64,000 bases of DNA. Origin: Burkholderiales bacterium (GTDB lineage Bacteria; Pseudomonadota; Gammaproteobacteria; Burkholderiales; SG8-39). Positions within the stretch are counted from its first letter, which is position 1. Each line of letters begins with the position of its first letter. The notes below the pieces were generated by a model. The model had not been told where the DNA came from. It worked only from the letters and a program-made list of their open reading frames with translations, and ran no database searches. Below are positions 6,332 to 45,902 of the stretch, one piece after another. Position numbers and translations under genes: made by a program. The stretch covers positions 61,943-125,942 of the forward strand of contig JBIOYV010000111.1 of assembly GCA_044870335.1 (NCBI GenBank), given 5' to 3'.

Positions 6332-6844
6332 ATGAAGCTTTGCATAGTGTCCGACAGCCACGATCGCGCCGACGCCCTCGCGGACGCGGTGCGCGCGGCC
6401 GCGGCGAAAGGCGCGCAGGCGGTGATCCACTGCGGCGATGTCATCGGCACGCAGACCTTGCGCGGCGCCATGGCGGTCGGCCTGCCGATGCACGTCATCC
6501 ACGGCAACAACCTCGGCGACCCCGTGTCGCTCTCGCGCTGGGCGCGCGACAGCGACGGCCGGCTCCAGTACCACGGCCCCGACGCGCGGCTCGACCTCGG
6601 CGGACGCCGGATCTTCGTCGTGCACTATCCGGAATACGGCTACGCCATGGCGTGCACCGGGGACTGGGATCTCGTCTGCTGCGGCCATTCGCACCAGGCA
6701 GGCATCGAGCAAATCCTCAATGTGAAGAGCGGCAAGACATGGTTGGTGAACCCCGGTACGGTGGCGGGGCTCGCCGCACCGGCGACCTGGGTGCTCGGCG
6801 ATCTTGCTGCAATGCACTTCGAGCGGCATTCGCTCGCTCTATAG
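6332..6844 (+). CDS. metallophosphoesterase (YfcE/MJ0936-like phosphodiesterase; 170 aa)
   Basis: MKLCIVSDSH...GD, GHSH and GNHD-like motifs. Internal ATG at 6332 within ORF 6035..6844. Confidence 0.8.
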   Translation: MKLCIVSDSHDRADALADAVRAAAAKGAQAVIHCGDVIGTQTLRGAMAVGLPMHVIHGNNLGDPVSLSRWARDSDGRLQYHGPDARLDLGGRRIFVVHYPEYGYAMACTGDWDLVCCGHSHQAGIEQILNVKSGKTWLVNPGTVAGLAAPATWVLGDLAAMHFERHSLAL

Positions 6845-6909: not shown

Positions 6910-7680
6910 ATGTTTGCAATCAATCCGTTCGCCGCGCTGTCGGCGACGATACCCCCTGCCGCCATGCAGGCCTACGTCGTGGCCATGGTCGCTCTGGTCG
7001 CCGCGGGTACGCTGTTCGACATCGTGCACAAGGGCAGCGCCCGGTATTTCTTCGACAACTGGCGCCGCTCGAAGGCGAGGGCGCGGAGCGAGCTCAGCGG
7101 CGGCGAGCTGGCGTCGATCGCAGTCCAGAGCGCCGTGGTGGATGTCCTCGCGTCCGGGGAATTCTGCAGCGCGCGCCGCCGCATCGCCCATCTGCTGACC
7201 ATGTACGGCTTCCTGATCCACGTGATCTCCACCGTCGTGATGGTGTTCAACTATTCGACGGCTTCCATCTGGCCGCACCTCTGGTGGATCGGGGGCGTCA
7301 TGGTCTGTATCGGCGGCTACTGGTTCTGGTTCTTCATCCGCGCCGACGTCGCCGCCGAAGGGAACTCGCCGCTCCGCATCATGCGCGCGGACTTGTTCAT
7401 CCTGTCGCTCCTGGCCAGCGTCACGCTCGGGCTCATCTGGGCGTGGGCGCAGGCGCGCGGCAGTACCGGGTCCCATGTTTGGTTTGCTCTTTACATCATC
7501 GCAACGACGCTGCTCTTCGGCTCGGTGCCGTGGTCGAAGTTCGCCCACATGTTCTTCAAGCCGGCGGCGGCGTTCGAAAAGAGGGTCTCGCACGCGAACG
7601 GCACGCGGAGCAATCTGCCTGGGCCCGCCGACAAGCCGGAGCAGTTCGGTAGCGCACGCACCGCGCCGCGCCACTACTGA
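6910..7680 (+). CDS. aprM: putative adenylylsulfate reductase membrane anchor AprM
   Basis: Polytopic membrane protein lying immediately upstream of aprBA. This arrangement is known from sulfur-oxidising proteobacteria. RBS GAGGAGG precedes the start. Confidence 0.6.
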   Translation: MFAINPFAALSATIPPAAMQAYVVAMVALVAAGTLFDIVHKGSARYFFDNWRRSKARARSELSGGELASIAVQSAVVDVLASGEFCSARRRIAHLLTMYGFLIHVISTVVMVFNYSTASIWPHLWWIGGVMVCIGGYWFWFFIRADVAAEGNSPLRIMRADLFILSLLASVTLGLIWAWAQARGSTGSHVWFALYIIATTLLFGSVPWSKFAHMFFKPAAAFEKRVSHANGTRSNLPGPADKPEQFGSARTAPRHY

Positions 7681-35387: not shown

Positions 35388-36484
35388 AGCTCGAATCGCT
35401 CCAGGCAAGCGCGCTCGCCATTTCCTTCCGGCACTCGTTCAGGCATGCGTCGGCCGAGCGTTCTGCCACGCAGGCGATCTGGGTCGCGGCACGCGCGTGC
35501 GGCGCCGCAGGCTACGGCGAGGGTTGTCCGCGCGAGTACGTCACCGCCGAGAGCGTGCGGAGCGCGCAAGTCTTCGTGGCTGCGCATCTGCACGAATGGA
35601 GCGGCGAGCTGCTCGACGCGCCGTGGTTGCGTGGCTGGACGGCGAAGCGCGAACGCGAGATCGACGCTCATCCCGCGGCGTGGACGGCGGTGGAGCTCGC
35701 TATGCTGGACCTGCTGGGGAAGACCGGGTCCAGGCCGGTGGAGGCGCTGCTCGGACTGCCCGCCCTGGCGGGTCGCTTCCAATATACGGCGGTGCTCGGC
35801 GACGCGCCGCCTGCCGCCTTCGAGGCGCAGCTTGCGCGCTACCGCGGCGCCGGTTTCCGTGATTTCAAGATCAAGCTCTCCGGCGAGCCGGCACGCGACG
35901 CGGCGAAGGTGAGCGTGCTGCGAGCCGCGGGCATCGCGCCCGAGCGCGTGCGCGCCGACGCCAACAATCTGTGGCCGGACGCGGGCGCCGCGATCGCAGC
36001 TCTCGAGGCGCTCGATTATCCCTTCGCCGCGCTCGAAGAGCCGCTGCGCGCCGGCGACCACGAAGGCATGGCGCGCGTCGGCCGGGCGCTCGGGAGCGCC
36101 ATCATCCTCGACGAAAGCGTGGCGCGCGCGAGCCAGCTCGAAACGTTGCCGGCGCATGGCAGCTGGATCGTCAATTTGCGGATCTCGAAAATGGGCGGTG
36201 TCCTGCGATCGCTGGAGTTCCTGAACGAGGCGCGCCGACTCGGTGTGCCAGTCGTCATCGGTGCGCACGTCGGCGAGACCAGCGTGCTGACACGCGCCGC
36301 GCTTACCGTGGCGAGCGTTGCGGGCGACGTTCTGATCGCGCAGGAAGGCGCGTTCGGCACCCACCTCCTCGAGCGCGACGTGGCCGAGGCGCCGCTCATG
36401 TTCGGCGCCGGTGGCGCGCTGGAAGTCGCGCCGGCGATGGCGGCAGCGCCGGGCTGGGGCCTCGCGATCCGTGAGCCCACGTAG
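35384..36484 (+). CDS. enolase-superfamily enzyme (mandelate racemase/muconate lactonising / dipeptide epimerase-like)
   Basis: Barrel-domain motifs (KIKLSG..., DANN, LEEP, DES, KMGG). ATGA overlap with the fusion gene. Confidence 0.85.
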   Translation: MKLESLQASALAISFRHSFRHASAERSATQAIWVAARACGAAGYGEGCPREYVTAESVRSAQVFVAAHLHEWSGELLDAPWLRGWTAKREREIDAHPAAWTAVELAMLDLLGKTGSRPVEALLGLPALAGRFQYTAVLGDAPPAAFEAQLARYRGAGFRDFKIKLSGEPARDAAKVSVLRAAGIAPERVRADANNLWPDAGAAIAALEALDYPFAALEEPLRAGDHEGMARVGRALGSAIILDESVARASQLETLPAHGSWIVNLRISKMGGVLRSLEFLNEARRLGVPVVIGAHVGETSVLTRAALTVASVAGDVLIAQEGAFGTHLLERDVAEAPLMFGAGGALEVAPAMAAAPGWGLAIREPT

Positions 36485-38195
36485 CCTCTTCGCCTGGCTG
36501 CTCGCCGCCGTGCTTGCGGTCGCCAGCGCAGGGTGCACCACCGTAGTCGGCCAGTTTTTCCTGCCGAAAGAGGGCGTGCGGGAAGCGGGCTACGCGGTCG
36601 AGCGGCAAAAGGGCGTCGCCTTCGATACTTCCGACGGCATCGCGCTGGTGGCCGATCTTTATCGACCCAGAACGCAGGAGAAGAGGCCGACGATCCTGGT
36701 GCGAATTCCATTTTCCAGCACCTTCAAGAACCGCCTCGCGGTCGATACCGTCGGCGAGTTCTGGGCGAGTCGCGGCTACAACGTGGTGATCCAGGGAACT
36801 CGCGGGCGCTACAAATCGGGCGGTGAGTTCTATCCGCTGCTCTACGAAGAGGCTGACGGGCGCGAAACGCTGCAATGGCTCGCGCGCCAGCCCTGGTTCG
36901 ACGGCCGCCTGGGGATGTGGGGCGGCTCGGCGTTCGGTCATACCCAGTGGGTGCTGGCGGGTGACGAGGCCCCCGGACCGGGCGTGCTCATGATCCAGAT
37001 CGCCAGCACCAGCTTTCGCGAGATGTTCCATCCGGGAGGCGCGTTCTCGCTCGAGTCCGCGCTGTTCTGGGCGGCGCGCAGCCACGGACGCGAAGACCGC
37101 GATCCCTCGTTCGACGCGCTCGAGCGCGGGTTCGCCGGGTTTCCATTGATCGAGGCCGACGACCGCGCCGTCGGCGACGTCGCCTTCTTCAACGACTGGG
37201 CGCGTCACGTCGACGCGGACGATTACTGGCGTCGCATCGACGGGACCGATCGTGCCGGCACGCTCAGGGCGCCAGTGCTCCTCATGGCGGGCTGGTATGA
37301 CCCGTTCCTGCCGACGCAGCTGCGCGACTTCGAAACCGTGCGGCGCGAAGCGGCGCCCGGCGTCGCGGCGGGCAGCCGGCTCATCGTCGGACCCTGGACG
37401 CACGCCGACCCGGTGCGGTTTCCCGACGGCTCGACCGCGGGCGACTACCGGCCAGCGAGCCTCGCGCCGAGCCTGCCGTGGTTCGACCATCATCTGCTCG
37501 GCAAGCCGCTCGCCCCATCGCTTGCCGCGCCGGTGCGCATCTACGTCATGGGCGAAAACCAATGGCGCGACGAGCGGGAATGGCCGCTCGCCCGCGCACG
37601 TTACGTACCCTATTACCTGGGAAGGGGTGGCCGCCTAGCGCAAAGCCCGCCGGGCGATGAGCCACCGGACTCCTACGTATGCGATCCGCGGCAGCCGGTA
37701 CCCTCGCGCGGCGGCGCCATGCTCGGTCCGCGCGCCGGCATAGCATTGCAAAACGACATCGAGGCACGCACCGACGTGCTCCTCTACACCACCGCGGCCC
37801 TCGAGCAGGACACCGAAGTCACTGGGCCGATCCGGGCGCTGCTCTACGTGTCCACCACGGCGCCAAATACGGATTTCACCGTCAAGCTGGTGGACGTCCA
37901 CCCGGACGGCAAGGCGTACAACATCTCCGACGGCATCCTGCGGCGCGCGTATCCCGAGCAGGCGCGCGAAACCCCGCAGGAAATCGTCGTCGAGCTCTGG
38001 CCGACCAGCATGCTCTTCCGGCGCGGCCATCGCGTGCGCGTCGAGGTCTCGAGCAGCAACTATCCGCGCTACGACCGCAATCCGAACACCGGCCGCGACA
38101 TCGCCACCGAAACCGAGCCGCGGCCGGCGACGCAGACCGTGTTCCACAGCGCCGTGGCGCCGTCGCGCATCATCCTGCCGCTGGTCCCGCGCTAG
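36471..38195 (+). CDS. CocE/NonD-family (S15 X-Pro dipeptidyl-peptidase-like) hydrolase, lipoprotein
   Basis: Lipobox LAVASAGC. GxSxG-like motif GGSAFG. C-terminal beta-sandwich. GTG start at 36471 assumed; an ATG at 36411 is an alternative. Confidence 0.75.
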   Translation: MSPRSLFAWLLAAVLAVASAGCTTVVGQFFLPKEGVREAGYAVERQKGVAFDTSDGIALVADLYRPRTQEKRPTILVRIPFSSTFKNRLAVDTVGEFWASRGYNVVIQGTRGRYKSGGEFYPLLYEEADGRETLQWLARQPWFDGRLGMWGGSAFGHTQWVLAGDEAPGPGVLMIQIASTSFREMFHPGGAFSLESALFWAARSHGREDRDPSFDALERGFAGFPLIEADDRAVGDVAFFNDWARHVDADDYWRRIDGTDRAGTLRAPVLLMAGWYDPFLPTQLRDFETVRREAAPGVAAGSRLIVGPWTHADPVRFPDGSTAGDYRPASLAPSLPWFDHHLLGKPLAPSLAAPVRIYVMGENQWRDEREWPLARARYVPYYLGRGGRLAQSPPGDEPPDSYVCDPRQPVPSRGGAMLGPRAGIALQNDIEARTDVLLYTTAALEQDTEVTGPIRALLYVSTTAPNTDFTVKLVDVHPDGKAYNISDGILRRAYPEQARETPQEIVVELWPTSMLFRRGHRVRVEVSSSNYPRYDRNPNTGRDIATETEPRPATQTVFHSAVAPSRIILPLVPR

Positions 38196-38207
38196 CCACT
38201 CCAAGCT

Positions 38208-39311
38208 CTACCGCAGCGCGCTGTAGACCTCGGCGAGCGAGCGCTTCCCGCCTTGTCCGGCGGCAAGTGCGAGCGACGCCCGGGCCAGCTTCTCCGCATC
38301 GCCCGCCGCGATCTCGGCCGCCAGGGCCTGCGCTTCCGCGCTGGTCAGCGAGCGCACATGGATTCGGGCGAAGCAGCGTCCCGGGCGGATCAGCGCGTCG
38401 TCCAGGTCGCCGACGTTCGGCAGGTTGGTCGAGAAGATGATCTTGCGTCCCTGCGCGCGCACCACGCCGTCGGCGATGGCGAGAAAGCGGTGCAGATGCT
38501 GGTTGCCGTCGGCGCGCGGCTTGAGCAGGTGGTCCGCGTCCTCGACGATGAACGCTTCATCCTCGCCGGTGATGAATTTGACGAAGATCTGGTCGCTGGA
38601 GAGTGCCCTCATGTCGCCGGTGTACATGGCGCGTGCTTCCTCGCCCTTGCGCCGCGACATCTCGCCGAGGATGGCGCGGATCAGCCGCGTCTTGCCGGTG
38701 CCCGGCGGCCCCTGCAGCACGAGCACGGTTTCCGGCGCGGCCAGGTAGCGCGCGATAAAGGGTTTCACGCCTTCCCTGATCTCGGGATAGGCGCGGTCGC
38801 GCAGGTCGTCGTCGGCCATCTCCTCGATCGACGCGCTCTCCAGGTCGTTACCCGAGAGAAAGTGCCAGTCGATCGAGAACATCGGCTCGGTGATGCGGGT
38901 CGAGCCGGCCTTGTCGAGCAGCCGCTGCTTTGCGGCCTCGGCGCGCGCCAGGTCGGCCGCCCAGATGTAGAAGGAGCAGGAGCAGTAATCGGCCTTGCGG
39001 CTGCCGTACGCGGCGACGAACAGCCCATCGCCGTCGAGGAGCATCGCCTCGGCGTGGATGCGCTCTGCGCGCCAAGCCGGGTCGAGCGCGATCGCGTCGA
39101 GCAGCACCTCGAGCTCGACGCGCGCTGCGAAGCGCAGCACACGGTAAGCGGGGTAGCGCGAGACGCCGTCCTCGAGGGCACGGGCCATGCGGTTCTCCAG
39201 CACCAGGGCGCCCAGGTAGTTGACGTGCCGCGTCAGCCCGCTGAACTGCTTGTATTGGTCGTTTTTCATGTCTCTCACAAAAAAACGGCCGACCCAAGGG
39301 CCAGCCGTCAA
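38208..39311 (-). CDS. AAA+ family ATPase with a ~190-aa N-terminal domain of unknown function
   Basis: Walker A GPPGTGKT, Walker B FIVEDAD, sensor/arginine finger region. TTG start overlaps the SPFH gene stop (TTGA). Confidence 0.8.
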   Translation of the reverse strand: MTAGPWVGRFFVRDMKNDQYKQFSGLTRHVNYLGALVLENRMARALEDGVSRYPAYRVLRFAARVELEVLLDAIALDPAWRAERIHAEAMLLDGDGLFVAAYGSRKADYCSCSFYIWAADLARAEAAKQRLLDKAGSTRITEPMFSIDWHFLSGNDLESASIEEMADDDLRDRAYPEIREGVKPFIARYLAAPETVLVLQGPPGTGKTRLIRAILGEMSRRKGEEARAMYTGDMRALSSDQIFVKFITGEDEAFIVEDADHLLKPRADGNQHLHRFLAIADGVVRAQGRKIIFSTNLPNVGDLDDALIRPGRCFARIHVRSLTSAEAQALAAEIAAGDAEKLARASLALAAGQGGKRSLAEVYSALR

Positions 39312-40453
39312 CGGATCTTCACCAGATCCTTCAGCACCGCGTCGAGGCCACCGAACACCGAGATCTTGTCGATCTTCTCGGTAACCTTCTCCAGAGTCTC
39401 CAGCTCCTTCAGCCGCAGCGCGGTCGGGTTGTCTTCCATCACCCGGGCGGTGTTCAGCAGCGAACGGGTAGCCGAGGTTTCCTCACGGCGGCGGATCACG
39501 TTCGCCAGCGCGGCCTTCTCGGCCTCCACCACCTTCGCCAGGATCACCTTCATCTCACCCGGCAGGATGATGTCCTTCACGCCGACCGAGTCGACTTCCA
39601 GGCCGAAGCCCTCCACGCGGCGCTTGATGTGCTCCGCCACCACCTGGTCGATCAGCCCCTTGTTCTCGAGCAGCTCGTCCAGGGTACGGGTACCCACCGC
39701 GGCACGCAGGCCGAACTGGAGCTCCTTGTACAGGTAGTCCGCCGGCTTCGCCTGCTTGCCGAACGCCACCAGCACGTCGGTCACACGGTAGCCCGCGTTC
39801 AGGTTCACGCGCAGCGGGACCTTGTCCTTGGTCAGGATTTCCTGACCCGCCACTTCCAGAACCTGCAGGCGCAGATCCACGAACTCGACGCGCATGTCGC
39901 GGCCGAAGCGGTAGAAGGCGCGCAGGCCGGCATCCAACACGTATGCCAGCTTGCCGTCGACGTATACGACGCCCACGTTGAACTGCGGCACCTGCACGCC
40001 GTACACGTCTTCAGCGCCGGGCACCTTCGCCTTGAAGCCGTTCGCAGTCAGAGTGATCAGCTGCGGTACCAGCTTCGGGTCGACGGTGAAGTCGGTCGCG
40101 ATGTCGACGCGCTCGAACTCCTGTTCGAGGTAGCCCTTGAAGTACAGGCGGCGGGTGTTCGGCGCCAGCATCTCGGCGAGCACGCCGTTCTCGACGCGCA
40201 GGCCGACCTCGGCCGTGCCGAGCTCGACCACGTGGAACTCGCGCGCCACGGCTTCCGGCTCCGCCTTCACCAGGAACTCGGCCAGGCGGTGCTCGAAGCG
40301 CGGCTGTGCCAGACCGAACTTCTCGACGGTCAGGCGGTGCAGCGGGTCGAAGCGAACGTGCTCGCCCGGACGCAGGATCTCGACGAAGTCGCCGCGCTCG
40401 AACAGCAGCGCGCGCTCATCCTTCTTCACATGAAACTTCCGAAACAGCATCAT
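39308..40453 (-). CDS. SPFH/band-7 (slipin-type) protein
   Basis: SPFH domain followed by a C-terminal coiled coil. RBS AAGGAG lies 7 nt before ATGATG at 40453. Confidence 0.85.
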   Translation of the reverse strand: MMLFRKFHVKKDERALLFERGDFVEILRPGEHVRFDPLHRLTVEKFGLAQPRFEHRLAEFLVKAEPEAVAREFHVVELGTAEVGLRVENGVLAEMLAPNTRRLYFKGYLEQEFERVDIATDFTVDPKLVPQLITLTANGFKAKVPGAEDVYGVQVPQFNVGVVYVDGKLAYVLDAGLRAFYRFGRDMRVEFVDLRLQVLEVAGQEILTKDKVPLRVNLNAGYRVTDVLVAFGKQAKPADYLYKELQFGLRAAVGTRTLDELLENKGLIDQVVAEHIKRRVEGFGLEVDSVGVKDIILPGEMKVILAKVVEAEKAALANVIRRREETSATRSLLNTARVMEDNPTALRLKELETLEKVTEKIDKISVFGGLDAVLKDLVKIR

Positions 40454-40714
40454 TTGTTTTCTCCTTTGTTTCTCCCTTAAAGAAACCACTTCTTAAAAAA
40501 ATCGGGAATCCGGCCTCCCGGGCGCCCGACGGGCTCCGCCGCGCACGCGGGGGAAAGCAGCGGTGCACCTCACAGAGATCCTTCCTGTGAATGCAGCGTT
40601 GCCTCGCCCGCAGGCGCCGCACGGCGCACTCGGCCTGGAACCCGGTGCGTGAGCGCGATGCTCTGCGCACACGCTGAAGCCGGCCCCGTACTGCGTTACT
40701 GCAGCCAACGTTAC

Positions 40715-40788
40715 AAGTTGGAGCGGGATTCGAACCCGCGACAGATCGGTTTTCAGCCGATTGCTCTACCCGTCTGAGCTATCCAGAT
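40715..40788 (-). tRNA. tRNA-Phe(GAA)-like. Two acceptor-stem mismatches, no encoded CCA. Possibly a pseudogene.
   Basis: D-arm GCTCAGACGGGTAGAGC, anticodon arm ATCGG-CTGAAAA-CCGAT and T-arm GCGGGTTCGAATCCCGC read by hand. Its first nucleotide is shared with the CCA end of the adjacent tRNA-Met. Confidence 0.5.
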
Positions 40789-40862
40789 GGTGGCGAGAGT
40801 GAGAGTCGAACTCACGACCTCCGCCTTATGAGAGCGTTGCTCTACCGCTGAGCTATCTCGCC
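40788..40862 (-). tRNA. tRNA-Met(CAT)
   Basis: Acceptor GGCGAGA/TCTCGCC, anticodon loop CTCATAA, T-loop TTCGACT, A73 then CCA. Confidence 0.7.
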
Positions 40863-41311
40863 CAACATTCGTCGCTCCCACGCCGCGGTACACGCCACGC
40901 CGATGTTCCAGGCAGGCGCGCCAGGGAGGACTCACGAGCCTCGCCCGCTGCGAACGCGTTCACGAAGAATTCTTGCTACGGATGTGGCAAAGCTTTGGGG
41001 GGACCTGCCGGAGTCGCACCGGCACTTGCGGATTCACATTCCGCTGTGCTGCTGTTACACCAAGATCTCCATCGAATCGGTGATGGCGCGCCTGACAGGA
41101 CTCGAACCTGAACCGACGGATTACCCGGGCATTACTCCGGGCCGCGCTGCGCTTGGAAACGCGCTTCCCTTCAGAACCGTCATCGGACCCTGTCGGTGCA
41201 TCCGCAACCATGCCCGCTCACGCGTTTGCAAATCCGCCTCCGCTCTTAACGGCACCCTTCGTCACTCGTTTTGGGTGTGCACTTTCCCTGTTGTGCGACA
41301 GGCGCTTGCTC

Positions 41312-41387
41312 TGGCTGTCCAGGCAGGCTTCGAACCTGCAGCCCGCGCCTTAACAGGGCGCCGCTCTACCGGTTGAGCTACTGGACA
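41312..41387 (-). tRNA. tRNA-Asn(GTT)
   Basis: Full cloverleaf: TGTCCAG-TA-GCTC-AACCGGTA-GAGC-G-GCGCC-CTGTTAA-GGCGC-GGGCT-GCAGG-TTCGAAG-CCTGC-CTGGACA-G-CCA (76 nt). Confidence 0.85.
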
Positions 41388-41394
41388 AAAGGAC

Positions 41395-41470
41395 TGGTAC
41401 CGGCCCGTGGTCTCGAACCACGCACCTCCCGCTTATCGAGCGGGTGCTCTTCCGGATGAGCTAGACCAGT
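41395..41470 (-). tRNA. tRNA-Ile(GAT)-like (unusual C33)
   Basis: Acceptor ACTGGTC/GGCCGGT with two G-U pairs. Anticodon loop TCGATAA. T-arm CGTGG-TTCGAGA-CCACG. CCA encoded. Confidence 0.6.
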
Positions 41471-41473
41471 GTC

Positions 41474-41548
41474 TGGCGGGGGCGCCTGGATTCGAACCAG
41501 GGACATCCGGCGTCAGAGGCCGGCGTTCTGCCGCTGAACTACGCCCCG
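41474..41548 (-). tRNA. tRNA-Gln(CTG)
   Basis: Anticodon arm CCGGC-CTCTGAC-GCCGG. T-arm CCTGG-TTCGAAT-CCAGG. C1-C72 mismatch. CCA encoded. Confidence 0.7.
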
Positions 41549-41550
41549 GC

Positions 41551-41626
41551 TGGCGCTTCCCCTCCGTTTCGAGCGGAGCTCTCCGGATCTTCAAACCGGC
41601 GCTGTCACCAGACCAGCTAGAGAAGC
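41551..41626 (-). tRNA. tRNA-Phe(GAA)-like with a non-canonical T-loop (CTCGAAA)
   Basis: Acceptor GCTTCTC/GGGAAGC. Anticodon loop TTGAAGA with a 31-39 mismatch. T-arm CTCCG-CTCGAAA-CGGAG (C54). Confidence 0.55.
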
Positions 41627-41632
41627 GTGAAT

Positions 41633-41708
41633 TGGTACTCGGTGATGGGGTCGAGCCATCGTCCTCCCGCTTGTGAGGTGGGCGCTCTTCGCACTGAGCT
41701 AACCGAGC
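41633..41708 (-). tRNA. tRNA-Val(CAC)-like with a non-canonical T-loop (CTCGACC)
   Basis: Acceptor GCTCGGT/ACCGAGT. Anticodon loop CTCACAA. T-arm GATGG-CTCGACC-CCATC. Confidence 0.6.
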
Positions 41709-41711
41709 ATT

Positions 41712-41787
41712 TGGTCGGCGCGGCAGGAGTTGAACCTGCAACCTTCTGATTAAGAGTCAGCTACTCTCGCCATTGAGTTACGCGCCG
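41712..41787 (-). tRNA. tRNA-Lys(CTT)
   Basis: Acceptor CGGCGCG/CGCGCCG. Anticodon loop CTCTTAA. T-arm GCAGG-TTCAACT-CCTGC. Confidence 0.7.
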
Positions 41788-41799
41788 TGTAGATAGTTT

Positions 41800-41875
41800 T
41801 GGCGGCACCGGCGGGACTTGAACCCGCGACCTCCTGCTCGACAAGCAGGCACTCTGTCTTCTGAGTTACGGCGCC
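41800..41875 (-). tRNA. tRNA-Asp(GTC)
   Basis: Acceptor GGCGCCG/CGGTGCC. Anticodon arm CCTGC-TTGTCGA-GCAGG. T-arm GCGGG-TTCAAGT-CCCGC. Confidence 0.8.
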
Positions 41876-41881
41876 ATTGAG

Positions 41882-41959
41882 TGGTACCTCCGGAAGGATT
41901 CGAACCCTCGGCCTCGCGGTTCGTAGCCGCGCGCTCTGGTTCCGCTGAGCTACGGAGGT
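41882..41959 (-). tRNA. tRNA-Arg(ACG)
   Basis: Acceptor ACCTCCG/CGGAGGT. Anticodon arm CGCGG-CTACGAA-CCGCG. T-arm GAGGG-TTCGAAT-CCTTC. Confidence 0.8.
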
Positions 41960-41964
41960 GTTGA

Positions 41965-42051
41965 TGGTTGAGCGGGAAGGATTTGAACCTTCACGGAACT
42001 GGCCGACCTCGGGGTTACGGCGCGGTGCCCTGCCTCATGGGCGTCCGCTCG
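41965..42051 (-). tRNA. type-II (long variable arm) tRNA-like gene, 87 nt. Anticodon arm not resolvable. Possibly a Tyr/Leu/Ser-type pseudogene.
   Basis: T-arm GAAGG-TTCAAAT-CCTTC resembles the E. coli tRNA-Tyr T-arm. Acceptor CGAGCGG/CCGCTCA with a C1-A72 mismatch. CCA encoded. No complementary anticodon stem found. Confidence 0.45.
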
Positions 42052-42057
42052 GTTGTA

Positions 42058-42134
42058 TGGTCTCGCCGGCAGGATTCGAACCTGCGGTCTCCTCGTCCCG
42101 AACGAGGCGCGCTGGCCGGCTGCGCTACAGCGAG
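42058..42134 (-). tRNA. tRNA-Pro(CGG)
   Basis: Anticodon arm CCTCG-TTCGGGA-CGAGG is identical to the E. coli tRNA-Pro(CGG) loop. T-arm GCAGG-TTCGAAT-CCTGC. Acceptor CTCGCTG/CGGCGAG. Confidence 0.85.
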
Positions 42135-42147
42135 GGAAGAAAATTGC

Positions 42148-42222
42148 TGGCATTCCCGGCCGGATTCGAACCGGCATCCACGGCTTGAAGGGCCGCGGTC
42201 CTGACCGTTAGACGACGGGAAC
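42148..42222 (-). tRNA. tRNA-Glu(TTC)
   Basis: GTTCCCG-TC-GTCTAACGGTCAGGAC...CCTTCAA...GCCGG-TTCGAAT-CCGGC-CGGGAAT-G-CCA. Closely parallels E. coli tRNA-Glu. Confidence 0.85.
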
Positions 42223-42361
42223 GTCGTAAATCGCGGGCGCAAGCCCGCCACCCCGCCGCGCGGCCCATGGGCCAACCGAGGGCACGTTGCGCGCGGCGGG
42301 GTCGTTTGCCACATCCAAGTTGTAAAAGAGCGGCGCGAGCTTTCGCTCACGCGAAAAAATC

Positions 42362-42438
42362 TGGTGCCCCACCCGGGATTCGAACCCGGAGCAGCGTGTT
42401 TCTGAGACACGCGCGTATGCCGATTCCGCCAGCGGGGC
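42362..42438 (-). tRNA. tRNA-Leu(CAG)-like lacking the long variable arm (77 nt). Atypical, possibly a pseudogene or non-canonical tRNA.
   Basis: Leu-type D-arm TG-GCG-GAATCGGCATA-CGC. Anticodon arm CGTGT-CTCAGAA-ACACG. Only a 5-nt variable region. T-arm CCGGG-TTCGAAT-CCCGG. Acceptor GCCCCGC/GTGGGGC. Confidence 0.6.
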
Positions 42439-42496
42439 GTTCGGGTCGCGGCACTCGGAAAATGCCGCGACCGGAATGCCGGTCCGCGAAGGCAAC

Positions 42497-42540
42497 AAAA
42501 AGCCCGGGGACCTTGCGGCGCACCCGGGCTCGGACGGACG
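42497..42540 (-). terminator. rho-independent terminator (minus-strand sense), copy 2 of a repeated ~45-bp element
   Basis: In minus-strand sense: hairpin gcccgggtgcgccgcaaggtccccgggc followed by tttttgt. Shares the consensus aCAAAAAGCCCGG...CCGGGCTyGGAyGG with the element at 42713. Confidence 0.6.
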
Positions 42541-42712
42541 ACCAGCGATTACTTGATCGCTAGAAGGCCTCCTCCGCTCGGTGCGCGCGCGTATCCGCCT
42601 CGCATGGCGCGATGGGCTTTCGCTGTTGCTCGAGTCGCAAATGCCGGTTCATCGAAATTCGATCCATATCCGTTCTCCTAACGCCGTGCTTGCAGCGGCG
42701 TTGACGCCCCAG

Positions 42713-42756
42713 AAACAAAAAGCCCGGAGCGCTCGCGCGGTCCGGGCTTCGGATGG
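42713..42756 (-). terminator. rho-independent terminator (minus-strand sense), copy 1 of the repeated element
   Basis: In minus-strand sense: hairpin gcccggaccgcgcgagcgctccgggc followed by tttttgtttc. Confidence 0.6.
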
Positions 42757-42817
42757 GCGCAAAGCGCTTACGCGATCTTCGTCTCCAGATCGGCGTCTCT
42801 ATCAAGTCGCTTCGGTT

Positions 42818-42848
42818 GCGTCGTGTGCATGTGCAAGGGCGCGCATTG
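42818..42848 (-). promoter_or_regulatory. strong sigma70-like promoter (TTGACT-N16-TACAAT) pointing toward lower coordinates. Embedded in a palindrome tcttgac-N9-gtcaaga.
   Basis: Minus-strand sense reads ctcTTGACTttggatctgtcaagacTACAATgcg. The same region carries TTGACA hexamers in plus-strand sense upstream of the 43009 gene. Confidence 0.55.
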
Positions 42849-43008
42849 TAGTCTTGACAGATCCAAAGTCAAGAGAATTTCTTGACACCGCCGCAGCCGC
42901 GACGAGTTCTAAGCCGAGGGTGCGCAAAAGGCAGTACGACCTGCGCCTGGAAATAAGTAGGTCCGAGGGATCGCTTTCGAAGGCGCAGAATTTAGACAGA
43001 GTGTTCCC

Positions 43009-44295
43009 ATGCAACCCGACGTCCAAATTCTCATCATCGGCGGCGGCCTCTCGGGCCTCAGCGCGGCGCTGCACCTCGTGCGCGCCGGCGTCGAGGACGT
43101 CTTCGTGCTCGAGGCCGAGCACATTGGCCTGGGCGGAAACACCTACCTGTCCGGCACGCCGGGTCCGGTGTTCCCCGATTACACCAAGATGGTGCTTACG
43201 CCGGACGACCGTGGCTATACCTATCTGTCGCGGCGCTTCAACCGCCAGGTGGCCCTCAACCTGATGCGCGTCAAGCGCCGCGGCGTGGAGCTGCAGCTCG
43301 AGCTCGCGCGGGGCTTCGACCCGCGCCTCGTGCGCCAGTACGGCACGCTCATCGTCGGCGAGCCCGACGACGACAGGAGGTTGCGCGAGGAGCACCGCGT
43401 GATGCGCGACCTCGGCATCGACGCCGACATCGAGCGCTACGACGCCGGCCTGATTGCCGCGCTCTACGGGACCGCCACGGGAAAGTACGTCCGGGGCCTG
43501 TTCGTCACCGGTGACGCGATCGTCGACTCGACGCGCTACATCCAGGCGATCGCGCGCTCGCTCGGCGAGACGCGTTACCGGGAGCAATCGCGCGTGGTCG
43601 CGTTGCGCGAGGAGGGCGACGTGGTGCGCGCCGAGCTCGAGGGCGGCGAGTCGGTGAGCGCCGCGCACGTGGTCATCGCGACCAACGGGTTCATCATCGA
43701 TCACGATGCGAATCTGAACAGCAGAATGCGCTCCTACTGGACCTTTCTCGTCGCCTTCGACGATCCGGGCGAGAACACGCCGAACGCCTATTACTTCGAC
43801 CCGCGTGCGCATTACTGGGCGCGCCAGGACGGCAAGCTCATCGTCGGCGGCGAGGACACGCCGGTGATCGACGATAACTTCCATGCGCCTCCGAACGCCG
43901 AGCGCTCCGCCGGGCGGCTCGTGGGCTGGTGCGCCGAGACGTTCCCGCGCCTCGCCGGGCGCACGGCGCTCGCGCTGCACTACAGCGTGTTCGGCGAAAC
44001 GCGCGACAACCTGCCGATTCTCGGCCGCTTTTCGCCGCAGAGCCGTGTCTGGTACGTCGTGGGCGACAACGGCGACGGCCAGAGCACGTTGAGCTGCATC
44101 GCCTATCTGCTTCCGCGCGCCATGGGCTTTGCGCAGCCGAGCGCCGAGGAAGAAGCGCTCATCGCCTTCCTCTCGCCCGGACGGGAGAGCCTCAAGGAGC
44201 CGCCCGCCAAGCCGGCGCCCGCCGCGCCGACCGCGGCCGGCGCATTGATCGAGACCAAGATCGACACCGAGATCGAGACCGAGATCGCGACCTAG
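43009..44295 (+). CDS. FAD-dependent oxidoreductase (DAO/glycine-oxidase-like family)
   Basis: N-terminal dinucleotide-binding motif ILIIGGGLSGLSAA. C-terminus carries IETKIDTEIETEI repeats. Confidence 0.8.
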   Translation: MQPDVQILIIGGGLSGLSAALHLVRAGVEDVFVLEAEHIGLGGNTYLSGTPGPVFPDYTKMVLTPDDRGYTYLSRRFNRQVALNLMRVKRRGVELQLELARGFDPRLVRQYGTLIVGEPDDDRRLREEHRVMRDLGIDADIERYDAGLIAALYGTATGKYVRGLFVTGDAIVDSTRYIQAIARSLGETRYREQSRVVALREEGDVVRAELEGGESVSAAHVVIATNGFIIDHDANLNSRMRSYWTFLVAFDDPGENTPNAYYFDPRAHYWARQDGKLIVGGEDTPVIDDNFHAPPNAERSAGRLVGWCAETFPRLAGRTALALHYSVFGETRDNLPILGRFSPQSRVWYVVGDNGDGQSTLSCIAYLLPRAMGFAQPSAEEEALIAFLSPGRESLKEPPAKPAPAAPTAAGALIETKIDTEIETEIAT

Positions 44296-44408
44296 CGGAG
44301 CGCCTCAGCGATACCGCCGAAGCCGAAGACCGCGGCGATGATTGCGACGATAAAAAACCCGATTGCCCAGCTCAGCATAAAGACCTCGACTAGGAGGCGC
44401 CGGCCTCT

Positions 44409-45902
44409 TCAGGATCCCGGCTGCGCCCAATTGCGCGCCCGGCTCACCGCTTCGCGCCAGCGGCTCATCAGAGCCTGCCTCTTCGAGGGCTCCATCGCGG
44501 GCTCGAAGCGGCGCGCGGCTTTCCATTGCTGCGCGAGCTCTGCGCGCGACTTCCAGAGAGCGACGGTGAGGCCGGCGAGATAGGCCGCGCCGAGCGCGGT
44601 GGTCTCGAGGACGCGCGGTCGGACAACGGGAACACCGAGGAGGTCGGCCTGGAATTGCATCAGCAGGTCGTTGGCGGAAGCCCCGCCGTCGACGCGCAGC
44701 TCGGCGAGCTTCTCGCCCGAGTCCTTCTGCATCGCCTCGAGCACTTCTGCGCTCTGGAAGGCGATCGATTCGAGCGCGGCGCGCGCTATGTGGGCTCTTG
44801 TCGTTCCTCTCGTCAATCCAAGGATGGTGCCGCGCGCGTTCGGATCCCAGTAGGGCGCGCCCAGTCCGGCGAAGGCGGGGACCACGAAGACGTCGCCGGA
44901 ATCGAGGACCTCGGAGGCAAGCCGTTCCACTTCGCTTGAACTGCTGAAAAAACCAAGCTGGTCGCGCAGCCACTGCACGACCGCGCCGGCGATGAACACG
45001 CTGCCTTCGAGCGCGTATTCCTTCGCGCCCGTCTGCGCGCAGGCGGTAGCGACGAGGCCGTTTGCCGACTGCACCACCTTGTCGCCGGTGTGGAGCAGCA
45101 TGAAACAGCCCGTGCCGTAGGTGTTCTTCGCCATGCCGGGCGCGTGGCAGGCCTGGCCGAAGAGCGCCGCCTGCTGGTCGCCGGCGACGCCGGCGATGAG
45201 GAGCGGCTCGCCGAGGACGCCCGCGGGCACCATGCCGAAGGCATGCGCCGAGGGATGGACCTCCGGCAGGATCGCCCGCGGCACGCGCAGCAGCCGCAGC
45301 AGCTCGTCGTCCCACTCGTTGGTATGAATGTTGAAAAGCAGCGTGCGCGAGGCGTTGGAGACGTCGGTGACGTGGGTGCGGTTGCCGGTGAGCTGCCAGA
45401 CGAGCCAGGTGTCGACCGTGCCGAACGCGAGCTCGCCGCGCGTCGCGCGCTCGCGCGCGCCGGGAATCTCGTCGAGCAGCCACGCGAGCTTGGTGCCGCT
45501 GAAGTAGGGATCGATCACGAGCCCGGTGCGCTCGCGGATCAGGCTCTCCGCGCCGACCTCGCGCAGATCCTTGCAGAGCCCGGCGGTGCGCCGGTCCTGC
45601 CACACGATGGCGTTGTGGACCGGCTCGCCGGTCTGCCGGTCCCAGACGATGGTGGTTTCGCGCTGGTTCGTGATGCCGATCGCCATCACGTCCTTGGCGG
45701 AGACGTTGGACTTGCGCAGCGCTTCGCGCGCCACGTCGCGCTGCGTGGCGAAGATCTCGCGCGGGTCGTGTTCCACCCAGCCCGCCTGCGGAAAGATCTG
45801 GCGGAACTCGCGCTGCCCGAGCGCCACCGGGCCGCCGGCCTCGTCGAAGAGGATCGCCCGCGAGCTCGTGGTGCCCTGATCGAGGGCCAGAACGTACTTC
45901 AC
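44409..45902 (-). CDS. glpK: glycerol kinase
   Basis: [20 protein letters not shown]... is highly GlpK-like along the full 497 aa. Confidence 0.92.

Follow-up and report, generated by a model that had tools for sequence, protein, structure and literature searches.

Can a leucine tRNA that lacks the long variable arm of its class still be a working gene, and why does such a gene stand at the head of a tRNA array in the leader of a chromosomal operon? These questions are raised by a 77-nt tRNA-Leu(CAG) gene in a 64,000-nt stretch of DNA (GenBank assembly GCA_044870335.1, contig JBIOYV010000111.1, positions 61,943 to 125,942), hereafter called the window. The gene encodes a class-I tRNA whose body and identity determinants are those of Leu and whose anticodon is CAG. 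We consider it likely that it is functional, reads CUG, is charged by leucyl-tRNA synthetase (LeuRS) and forms the lead gene of an accessory, horizontally spread array in the leader of a slipin-AAA operon.

Structure of the tRNA-Leu(CAG) Gene

42362..42438, minus strand: class-I tRNA-Leu(CAG) (ARAGORN; Rfam RF00005, 56.3 bits; gap relative to Escherichia coli tRNALeu(CAG); covariation)

The gene, called tRNA-Leu(cag) by ARAGORN, is 77 nt long with the encoded CCA included and reads GCCCCGC-UG-GCG-GAAUCGGCAUA-CGC-G-CGUGU-CUCAGAA-ACACG-CUGCU-CCGGG-UUCGAAU-CCCGG-GUGGGGC-A-CCA. Its acceptor stem has 7 bp with one G-U and begins with G1-C72, and the D arm combines a 3-bp D stem with a D loop of the tRNA-Leu type. 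The anticodon loop CUCAGAA carries CAG with an A at position 37, the variable loop CUGCU sets the T stem 5 nt away from the anticodon stem, and a canonical T arm is followed by the discriminator A73; all 20 stem pairs are intact. The Rfam tRNA model gave the gene 56.3 bits, where the threshold is 29 (E = 1.8e-9 over the whole window), and the match covers model positions 1-71 with only single-base insertions. A preliminary description of the window, made from the letters alone, had placed a CAG-anticodon tRNA of 77 nt with a 5-nt variable region at 42362-42438, and the ARAGORN and Rfam calls coincide with it exactly, on the minus strand. Its reading of the D arm as Leu-type also held, with positions 8-26 collinear with E. 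coli tRNALeu.

As the reference for alignment with the gene we took tRNALeu(CAG) of E. coli, whose sequence was verified in all 5,426 E. coli genomes. The two are collinear apart from a single clean 10-nt gap in the variable region. The variable arm of more than 10 nt with a stem that defines class II is thus missing, and the gene has the features of a type-I prokaryotic tRNA-Leu: a Leu anticodon, a variable loop of 4-5 nt and an otherwise complete cloverleaf (PMC6614811). The preliminary description had left room for a long arm hidden by the choice of flanks, and none is possible; the acceptor 3' strand, A73 and CCA follow directly after the T stem. Blastn of the 77-nt gene against the E. coli genomes gave no match, and there is no common 11-nt seed. 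The minimum free energy fold of the isolated tRNA is not the cloverleaf (z = −2.1), which is usual for GC-rich tRNAs, and no weight was placed on it.

The preliminary description had argued from the premise that a long arm is present in every bacterial tRNA-Leu. This is contradicted by S. coelicolor (Streptomyces coelicolor) tRNALeu(CAA), Mycobacterium tRNALeu(UAG) and 77-nt phage tRNA-Leu genes. The class-I tRNA-Leu(CAG) is therefore unusual but not new, being of a known and little-described kind with precedents. The suggestion of a non-canonical tRNA of the kind seen in tRNA arrays proved apt, as the gene is the first of an array.

Leucine Determinants and Predicted Charging

The determinants of E. 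coli LeuRS are A73, the A15-U48 pair, G18G19 and A20a (Giege & Eriani 2023, PMC9976931). Both the anticodon and the long arm of E. coli tRNALeu are dispensable, and a minimal armless tRNALeu is still charged (PMC9976931), contrary to the earlier assumption that LeuRS uses the long arm for recognition. The tRNA-Leu(CAG) retains the 3-bp D stem together with A73, A15-U48, G18G19 and the equivalent of A20a, all of which are conserved across its family. It also has C2-G71, which in E. coli tRNALeu is an antideterminant against seryl-tRNA synthetase (SerRS) (PMC9976931). With the anticodon masked, the gene was globally aligned against 1,261 distinct tRNAs from the fetched loci, and its body scored best with class-I Leu tRNAs (maximum 62), then with class-II Leu tRNAs (maximum 29.8), and at no more than 25 with other isotypes.

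The distribution of variable arms at 182 loci bearing class-I Leu genes follows the same identity rules. Leu genes are short in 229 of 275 cases and long-armed in the other 46, while a long arm is present in 95 of 97 Ser genes (short in 2/97) and in 65 of 67 Tyr genes (short in 2/67). The long arm is lost only from the class-II isotype whose synthetase does not need it: Leu tRNAs can lose the arm and Ser and Tyr tRNAs cannot, because only LeuRS does without it. As a separate observation, the viral contig L017 (related loci and contigs are numbered with L) encodes a 77-nt class-I tRNA-Tyr(GUA) at 6359-6435, in a cluster that also holds two class-I Leu genes. From these features, tRNA-Leu(CAG) would most likely be leucylated by LeuRS.

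A Family under Purifying Selection

Relatives were sought with a pattern requiring a Leu-type D arm, a 7-nt loop with an NAR anticodon and the exact class-I distance to a TTCRANT T loop. Matches were found on 101 viral contigs and on 81 contigs among 185,579 species-representative genomes. Cultured isolates of Kordia, Tenacibaculum, Psychroserpens and Aquimarina, Chryseobacterium sp. 8AT and Flavobacterium sp. CF136 are among the genomes with a match. A cloverleaf filter was passed by 175 of 185 pattern matches, giving 134 distinct sequences. Two positions left free in the pattern proved nearly fixed: the last base of the variable loop is U48 in 134/134 distinct copies, and the discriminator is A73 in 133/134. 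A Leu anticodon is present in all 134, and the encoded CCA is conserved. In the viral copies A73 occurs in 102/102 and the stems are essentially perfect; one of them, a CAG copy on L017, has an acceptor stem identical to that of tRNA-Leu(CAG). Loci bearing class-I Leu genes are mostly clusters, with a median of 7 tRNAs per ~8-kb locus.

When 83 distinct family sequences are fitted to the class-I cloverleaf, 99.3% of stem cells pair, a percentage slightly inflated by the prefiltering of the alignment for intact stems, and 530 cells show double changes. The covariation score of these 83 sequences was 0.872; shuffles gave 0.201, and slid controls did not exceed 0.183. A37 is found in 18 of 19 CAG family members, so that N1-methylguanosine at position 37 (m1G37) is not possible there. 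More broadly, about half of the class-I tRNA-Leu members with NAG anticodons have A37, not G37, and are likewise closed to m1G37. A G1-U72 wobble is the first acceptor pair in 52 of the 83 aligned sequences.

The clade to which the gene belongs contains nine genome loci that agree with it in acceptor stem, D arm and CAG anticodon:

L103, L144, L148, L155, L126, L135, L174, L175: labelled Burkholderiales or beta-proteobacterial metagenome-assembled genomes (MAGs)
L121: labelled Binatia

Two of these, L126 and L148, are labelled Enterobacteriaceae, yet they have 65-68% G+C. Anticodon stems within the clade differ by compensation (CGUGU/ACACG, CAUGU/ACAUG, CAUGC/GCAUG, CCCGC/GCGGG). The 5-nt variable loops, in contrast, are unrelated in sequence and freely variable at positions 44-47, and all end in U. 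Across 17 clade members 99.7% of cells are paired, with compensatory changes in 8 pairs, and 0 of 500 shuffles reached the observed value. The structure and identity of tRNA-Leu(CAG) are under purifying selection and not drifting, because the stems covary and U48 and A73 are held while positions 44-47 are free. We found no paper in the literature searched that treats phage or array class-I tRNA-Leu as a family.

A Probably Accessory Array in a Slipin-AAA Operon

The gene opens an array of 14 tRNA genes called by ARAGORN, all on the minus strand from 42438 to 40715, and ARAGORN found no tRNA elsewhere in the window. With two further tRNA-like elements the array amounts to 14-16 co-oriented genes in 1.7 kb, at operon-like spacing. 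Directly downstream lies a conserved pair of protein genes.

42438->40715, minus strand: array order Leu(CAG), Glu, Pro, Arg, Asp, Lys, Val, Phe, Gln, Ile, Asn, His, Met, Phe (ARAGORN)
40715..42222, minus strand: rest of the array after Leu (ARAGORN; Rfam)
40973..42493, minus strand: Leu-to-His segment, not present in array-less relatives (L190 sequence, and its leader compared with the window by blastn)
39308..40489, minus strand: SPFH/Band-7 gene of the slipin family, directly downstream of the array (Pfam PF01145, E = 1.4e-26)
38208..39311, minus strand: AAA ATPase gene, last of the conserved cassette (Pfam AAA, E = 1.4e-9)

After Leu the anticodons are Glu(UUC), Pro(CGG), Arg(ACG), Asp(GUC), Lys(CUU), Val(CAC), Phe(GAA), Gln(CUG), Ile(GAU), Asn(GUU), His(GUG) and Met(CAU). 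The gene order is matched in L103, L144, L155, L174 and L135, and L183 (contig JBIOZM010000148.1 of GCA_044871145.1) has the same array along with an identical DAO protein. When the 2-kb array was compared by blastn with cultured phages and plasmids, only short single-tRNA matches and no close relative were returned.

AAA ATPase, slipin, array, leader and promoter together form a cassette of ~4.6 kb (~38203-42884) that has 80-86% DNA identity to L103, L144, L155, L121 and L148, and the genes outside it are unrelated between the window and these five loci. The slipin, whose close homologues are named "slipin family protein" by NCBI, has 80-90% amino acid identity in the same five loci, and the AAA ATPase has 73-76% in related loci. 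More distant arrays also adjoin a slipin homologue (67% amino acid identity in L116, 40% in L178). Thousands of close homologues of the slipin occur in soil metagenomes.

Two relatives on large contigs, L190 and L191 (2.2 Mb and 0.8 Mb), have an 88%-identical slipin-AAA pair with a homologous promoter and leader and no tRNA gene. They lack the Leu-to-His segment and also the Met gene. In place of the tRNAs, L190 (6950-8000) and L191 have a 78-aa gene of the GerE/LuxR type. Since these array-less loci are otherwise homologous, the array amounts to a presence/absence polymorphism within the leader of an operon. Its patchy presence and differing context are those of a horizontally transferred tRNA array. 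Leucine codon use differs between the cassette genes slipin and AAA (CTG 64, CTC 21) and the flanking DAO, FGGY and PepX genes at 36411-38195 and 43009-45902 (CTG 49, CTC 75), a contrast consistent with a foreign origin of the cassette.

Outside the cassette, the window (65-70% G+C) encodes ordinary chromosomal functions, including a sensor kinase, an ABC transporter, oxidoreductases, a glycerol kinase and an X-Pro dipeptidyl peptidase, and neither phage structural genes nor an integrase were found in it. The links of the locus to phages are limited to a match of the AAA ATPase to PHROG 14322, a phage family of unknown function (E = 8.6e-39), and to the tRNA relatives on viral contigs; on those contigs no relatives of the slipin or the AAA ATPase were found. 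PADLOC gave no defence-system assignment for the slipin and weak P-loop-level matches for the AAA protein. Direct repeats and terminal inverted repeats were absent from the ends of both the cassette and the Leu-His insertion.

Elements around the Gene and Unusual Members of the Array

The tRNA-Leu(CAG) gene is flanked by several candidate signals:

42845..42872, minus strand: sigma-70-like promoter TTGACT-16-TACAAT, upstream of leader and array (consensus scan, 10/12 matches)
42494..42529, minus strand: terminator-like leader hairpin GCCCGGG...CCCGGGC TTTTTGTT (read from sequence; conserved in L190)
42323..42352, minus strand: terminator-like hairpin with U tract, GCGTGAGC-GAAA-GCTCGCGC CGCTCTTTTA, immediately 3' of tRNA-Leu (consensus scan)
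42305..42330, minus strand: 26-nt motif CTCTTTTACAACTTGGATGTGGCAAA, invariant in 7 loci
42251..42301, minus strand: long G+C hairpin in the Leu-Glu spacer, CCCCGCCGCGCG ... CGCGCGGCGGGG (read from sequence)
40980..40990, plus strand: inverted copy of the motif core, GGATGTGGCAA, just past tRNA-His

The promoter, which is putatively the one in use, has a homologue in array-less L190 (TTGACT-N17-TAGAAT). The leader hairpin lies 55 nt upstream of tRNA-Leu(CAG). The hairpin immediately 3' of the gene is kept by compensatory changes in 7 related loci, and the arms of the long G+C hairpin are conserved or compensated in most related loci around a variable loop. The inverted motif pair, also written GGATGTGGCAAAG, brackets the Glu-His core of the array; it occurs in every array-bearing relative checked and is absent from L190 and L191. 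It may act as a stem for processing, as a pair of operators or as a site of recombination.

Four members of the array depart from a regular tRNA:

41968-42051, minus strand: Tyr(GUA)-like class-II element between Pro and Arg (Rfam, 28.6 bits, below the threshold of 29)
41551-41626, minus strand: odd tRNA-Phe(GAA) (ARAGORN only; no Rfam detection even at E<=10)
41084-41305, minus strand: 222-nt tRNA-shaped element between Asn and His (uncalled by ARAGORN and Rfam)
40715-40788, minus strand: Phe-like element, called tRNA-Phe(GAA) by ARAGORN, last in the array after Met

The Tyr-like element has two anticodon-stem mismatches and C33, and it occupies a 98-nt Pro-Arg gap that is absent in L103. In the odd Phe the T loop is CUCGAAA in place of UUCGAAU, position 73 is G and pair 31-39 is U-U; its body is almost invariant, with the GAA anticodon kept, in six related arrays. 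The 222-nt element, absent from L103 and L174, combines an acceptor stem of 7 bp (GCGCCUG/CAGGCGC) with a D arm, a stem closed by a 15-nt loop, a T arm and a G73-CCA end, and has an insert of ~125 nt at the place of the variable region; it folds no better than shuffled sequence (z = −0.21). In the Phe-like element the acceptor stem has only 4-5 pairs and CCA is missing, and there is a 1-nt overlap between its start and the CCA end of tRNA-Met. A homologue of it with an 8-nt loop, CACUAGGA, lies at 7318-7392 of the array-less L190, where ARAGORN made no call.

Proposed Function and Alternative Explanations

The sequence of events that we favor would begin with an ordinary class-II tRNA-Leu from which the variable-arm hairpin was lost. 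The host is probably an uncultured high-GC soil bacterium of a Burkholderiales-like MAG lineage, carrying the array in the leader of its slipin-AAA operon. There the tRNA would be transcribed, either from the promoter upstream or through read-through of the leader, and then processed, and the host LeuRS would charge it by way of A73, the Leu-type D loop (G18G19, A20a) and A15-U48. It would decode CUG, which dominates Leu codon use in the cassette and shares that position with one other codon in the host. The array may provide spare or additional tRNAs when translation is stressed or when tRNAs come under attack, as has been proposed for other transferred arrays.

Several points weigh against this explanation. 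Expression and leucylation of the gene are predicted from its sequence. E. coli LeuRS and one Streptomyces LeuRS fail to charge S. coelicolor type-I tRNALeu (PMC6614811), so charging of tRNA-Leu(CAG) depends on the host enzyme, and the 64-kb window contains no LeuRS gene. The G37 that is canonical for CUN-reading tRNAs, the m1G37 site found in E. coli, is replaced by A37. Terminator-like hairpins stand on both sides of the gene, which makes any account of its transcription tentative. Neither the flanks within the window nor those of four relatives yielded an integrase, a transposase or a homing endonuclease next to the cassette. The supernumerary status of the gene is suggested by its relatives, with 64 kb of its own genome in view. 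The prefiltering of the family alignment belongs here as well.

The best-surviving alternative, which we still regard as unlikely, is that the gene is a housekeeping tRNALeu(CAG), vertically inherited in a lineage that has switched to class-I Leu and not accessory at all. The ordinary chromosomal setting, free of phage and integrase genes, would suit it, as would the array anticodons, which fit high-GC codon use, and the many slipin homologues in soil metagenomes, which point to an abundant lineage. Relatives with an equally similar slipin-AAA operon, promoter and leader nevertheless have no tRNAs there, and the flanks differ among carriers. Moreover, the nearest tRNA relatives include viral contigs such as L017 with its identical acceptor stem, and an array of at most about 15 isotypes with several aberrant members is not a complete set.

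A little less probable again is a mainly non-translational role, as a nuclease decoy or replacement substrate, as a processing or terminator module of the leader, or as a regulatory RNA. The conserved terminator-like hairpin, the invariant 26-nt motif and the long hairpin separate the gene from the other array members, the gene lies in the leader of a protein operon, and arrays have been proposed as anti-defence elements (PMC12803027, PMC10264068). However, the conserved aminoacylation determinants, the Leu anticodon in every family copy and the encoded CCA are what a translating tRNA requires. A replacement tRNA would in any case still need to be charged and to decode, and so this alternative overlaps with the explanation that we favor.

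The preliminary description had also raised the possibility of an altered identity. On this account a CUG-reading tRNA would be charged with another amino acid, as a form of deliberate mistranslation, or would remain uncharged, and we judge it improbable. The rejection of type-I tRNALeu by some LeuRS enzymes (PMC6614811), A37 in place of the usual G37, and the G1-U72 pair of most family members (G1-C72 in the window copy) could be read in its favor. Against it, all tested Leu determinants are retained and conserved, C2-G71 is present to oppose SerRS, G3-U70 (Ala) is absent, and so are the long arm and G73 that Ser identity requires. Most other synthetases read an anticodon with which CAG does not agree, and the anticodon-masked body is nearest to Leu tRNAs.

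That the gene is a decaying pseudogene, a former class-II tRNA-Leu drifting after a deletion, is very improbable: the near-universal long arm of bacterial tRNA-Leu is indeed absent and some array members look degenerate (the Tyr-like element at 28.6 bits with its mismatched anticodon stem, the Phe-like one with a 4-5-bp acceptor stem), but this part of the preliminary description is refuted by covariation in the family (530 compensatory cells in 83 sequences) and in the clade of the gene (8 compensated pairs), by U48 and A73 held beside a free loop 44-47, and by 20 intact stem pairs, a canonical T loop and an encoded CCA.

Wider Implications

The functional, accessory class-I tRNA-Leu that we favor has consequences beyond this locus. 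The textbook statement that bacterial tRNA-Leu is class II fails systematically in the gene pools of phages and tRNA arrays, and the failure follows identity rules, with the arm lost only where the synthetase ignores it. For annotation, class-I tRNA-Leu genes should not be marked as pseudogenes. The family offers natural compact Leu tRNAs for studies of shape recognition by LeuRS and for tRNA engineering, and the coupling of the array to a slipin-AAA operon could link tRNA arrays to membrane or proteostasis stress responses.

A broader proposal, which we put forward as a speculation with the balance tilted clearly against it, is that class-I tRNA-Leu is a coherent and largely undescribed hallmark of mobile tRNA sets, built here into a slipin-AAA "emergency translation" module. 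If true, the hallmark would comprise A73, A15-U48, a frequent G1-U72 and a frequent A37 instead of m1G37, and would be spread over hundreds of phage contigs and a few hundredths of a percent of bacterial species. The altered shape and anticodon loop could then work while the tRNA-Leu of the host is attacked or under-modified. The array in the slipin-AAA leader, with its bracket of conserved inverted 12-13-nt motifs and its conserved terminator, would be a regulated module, analogous to the TrcR-controlled trn/slipin/AAA response of Anabaena.

Comparison with Known Systems

Outside bacteria, animal mitochondrial tRNALeu is class-I, has no long arm and takes its identity mainly from A73 and A14 (PMC9976931). 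It differs from tRNA-Leu(CAG) in being organellar, in having its own dedicated LeuRS and in its divergent and often weak cloverleaves, and there is no evolutionary link to the GC-rich canonical cloverleaf described here.

Closer in kind is the type-I tRNALeu(CAA) of S. coelicolor, which has a 5-nt loop, is charged by the single LeuRS of that organism (Fan et al. 2019, PMC6614811) and coexists with type-II tRNALeu; the length of its loop matters and the loop sequence does not (PMC6614811). A Leu anticodon and a 5-nt loop are common to both tRNAs, and the rule of length over sequence fits the free positions 44-47 seen here. They differ in anticodon, which is CAG here, and in the loop, ACAGC (C48) in S. 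coelicolor compared with the invariant U48 of the family. The S. coelicolor gene is not described as a member of an array, whereas tRNA-Leu(CAG) leads one; its own charging is a prediction. None of the Streptomyces genomes among the 185,579 species genomes matched the family pattern, and for this reason the short-armed tRNALeu of S. coelicolor may represent an independent loss.

A short-loop tRNALeu(UAG) in a cluster of Mycobacterium mucogenicum/phocaicum has been mentioned in passing (Behra et al. 2019, PMC6582537). Like tRNA-Leu(CAG) it lies in an accessory cluster; its genome has a normal long-arm isoacceptor at another place. Its host is actinobacterial, its anticodon is UAG and its cluster is linked to an HNH endonuclease, in all of which it differs. 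Among phages, GenBank records for Mesorhizobium phage Cp1R7A-A1 contain tRNA-Leu genes of 77, 76 and 72 nt and one of 83 nt, and two copies of 77 nt are present in the T5-like Vibrio phage vB_ValS_X1. The 77-nt phage genes match tRNA-Leu(CAG) in length, cloverleaf and D arm, stand in clusters and are annotated plainly as tRNA-Leu. Unlike them, the array in the window has no phage genes beside it except the AAA ATPase with its PHROG match.

The array as a whole resembles the long arrays (L-arrays) and tRNA array units that are spread by horizontal gene transfer, one of which is induced in Anabaena under translational stress (PMC8421152). Arrays and phage tRNAs have also been interpreted as anti-defence elements (PMC12803027, PMC10264068); arrays of this kind are known from Mycobacterium avium plasmids (PMC12803027). 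Shared features are the many co-oriented, closely set tRNAs, the patchy distribution and members structurally unlike housekeeping tRNAs. The present array is smaller, with 14-16 genes against 26-43, and no homing endonuclease or plasmid context was found here. When plasmids were searched with a typical class-I Leu gene, the matches were all class-II tRNA-Leu of Bacillus/Priestia plasmids, uninformative on the Anabaena array.

A parallel to the operon is also found in Anabaena, where the repressor TrcR controls the trn array together with the slipin alr0740 and the AAA ATPase all0263, which are induced along with it under translational stress (PMC10272220). This parallel is one by description. 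In Anabaena the array is only co-regulated with such genes, whereas in the window it is embedded between a promoter and a slipin-AAA pair, so that what is co-regulation there is physical linkage here.

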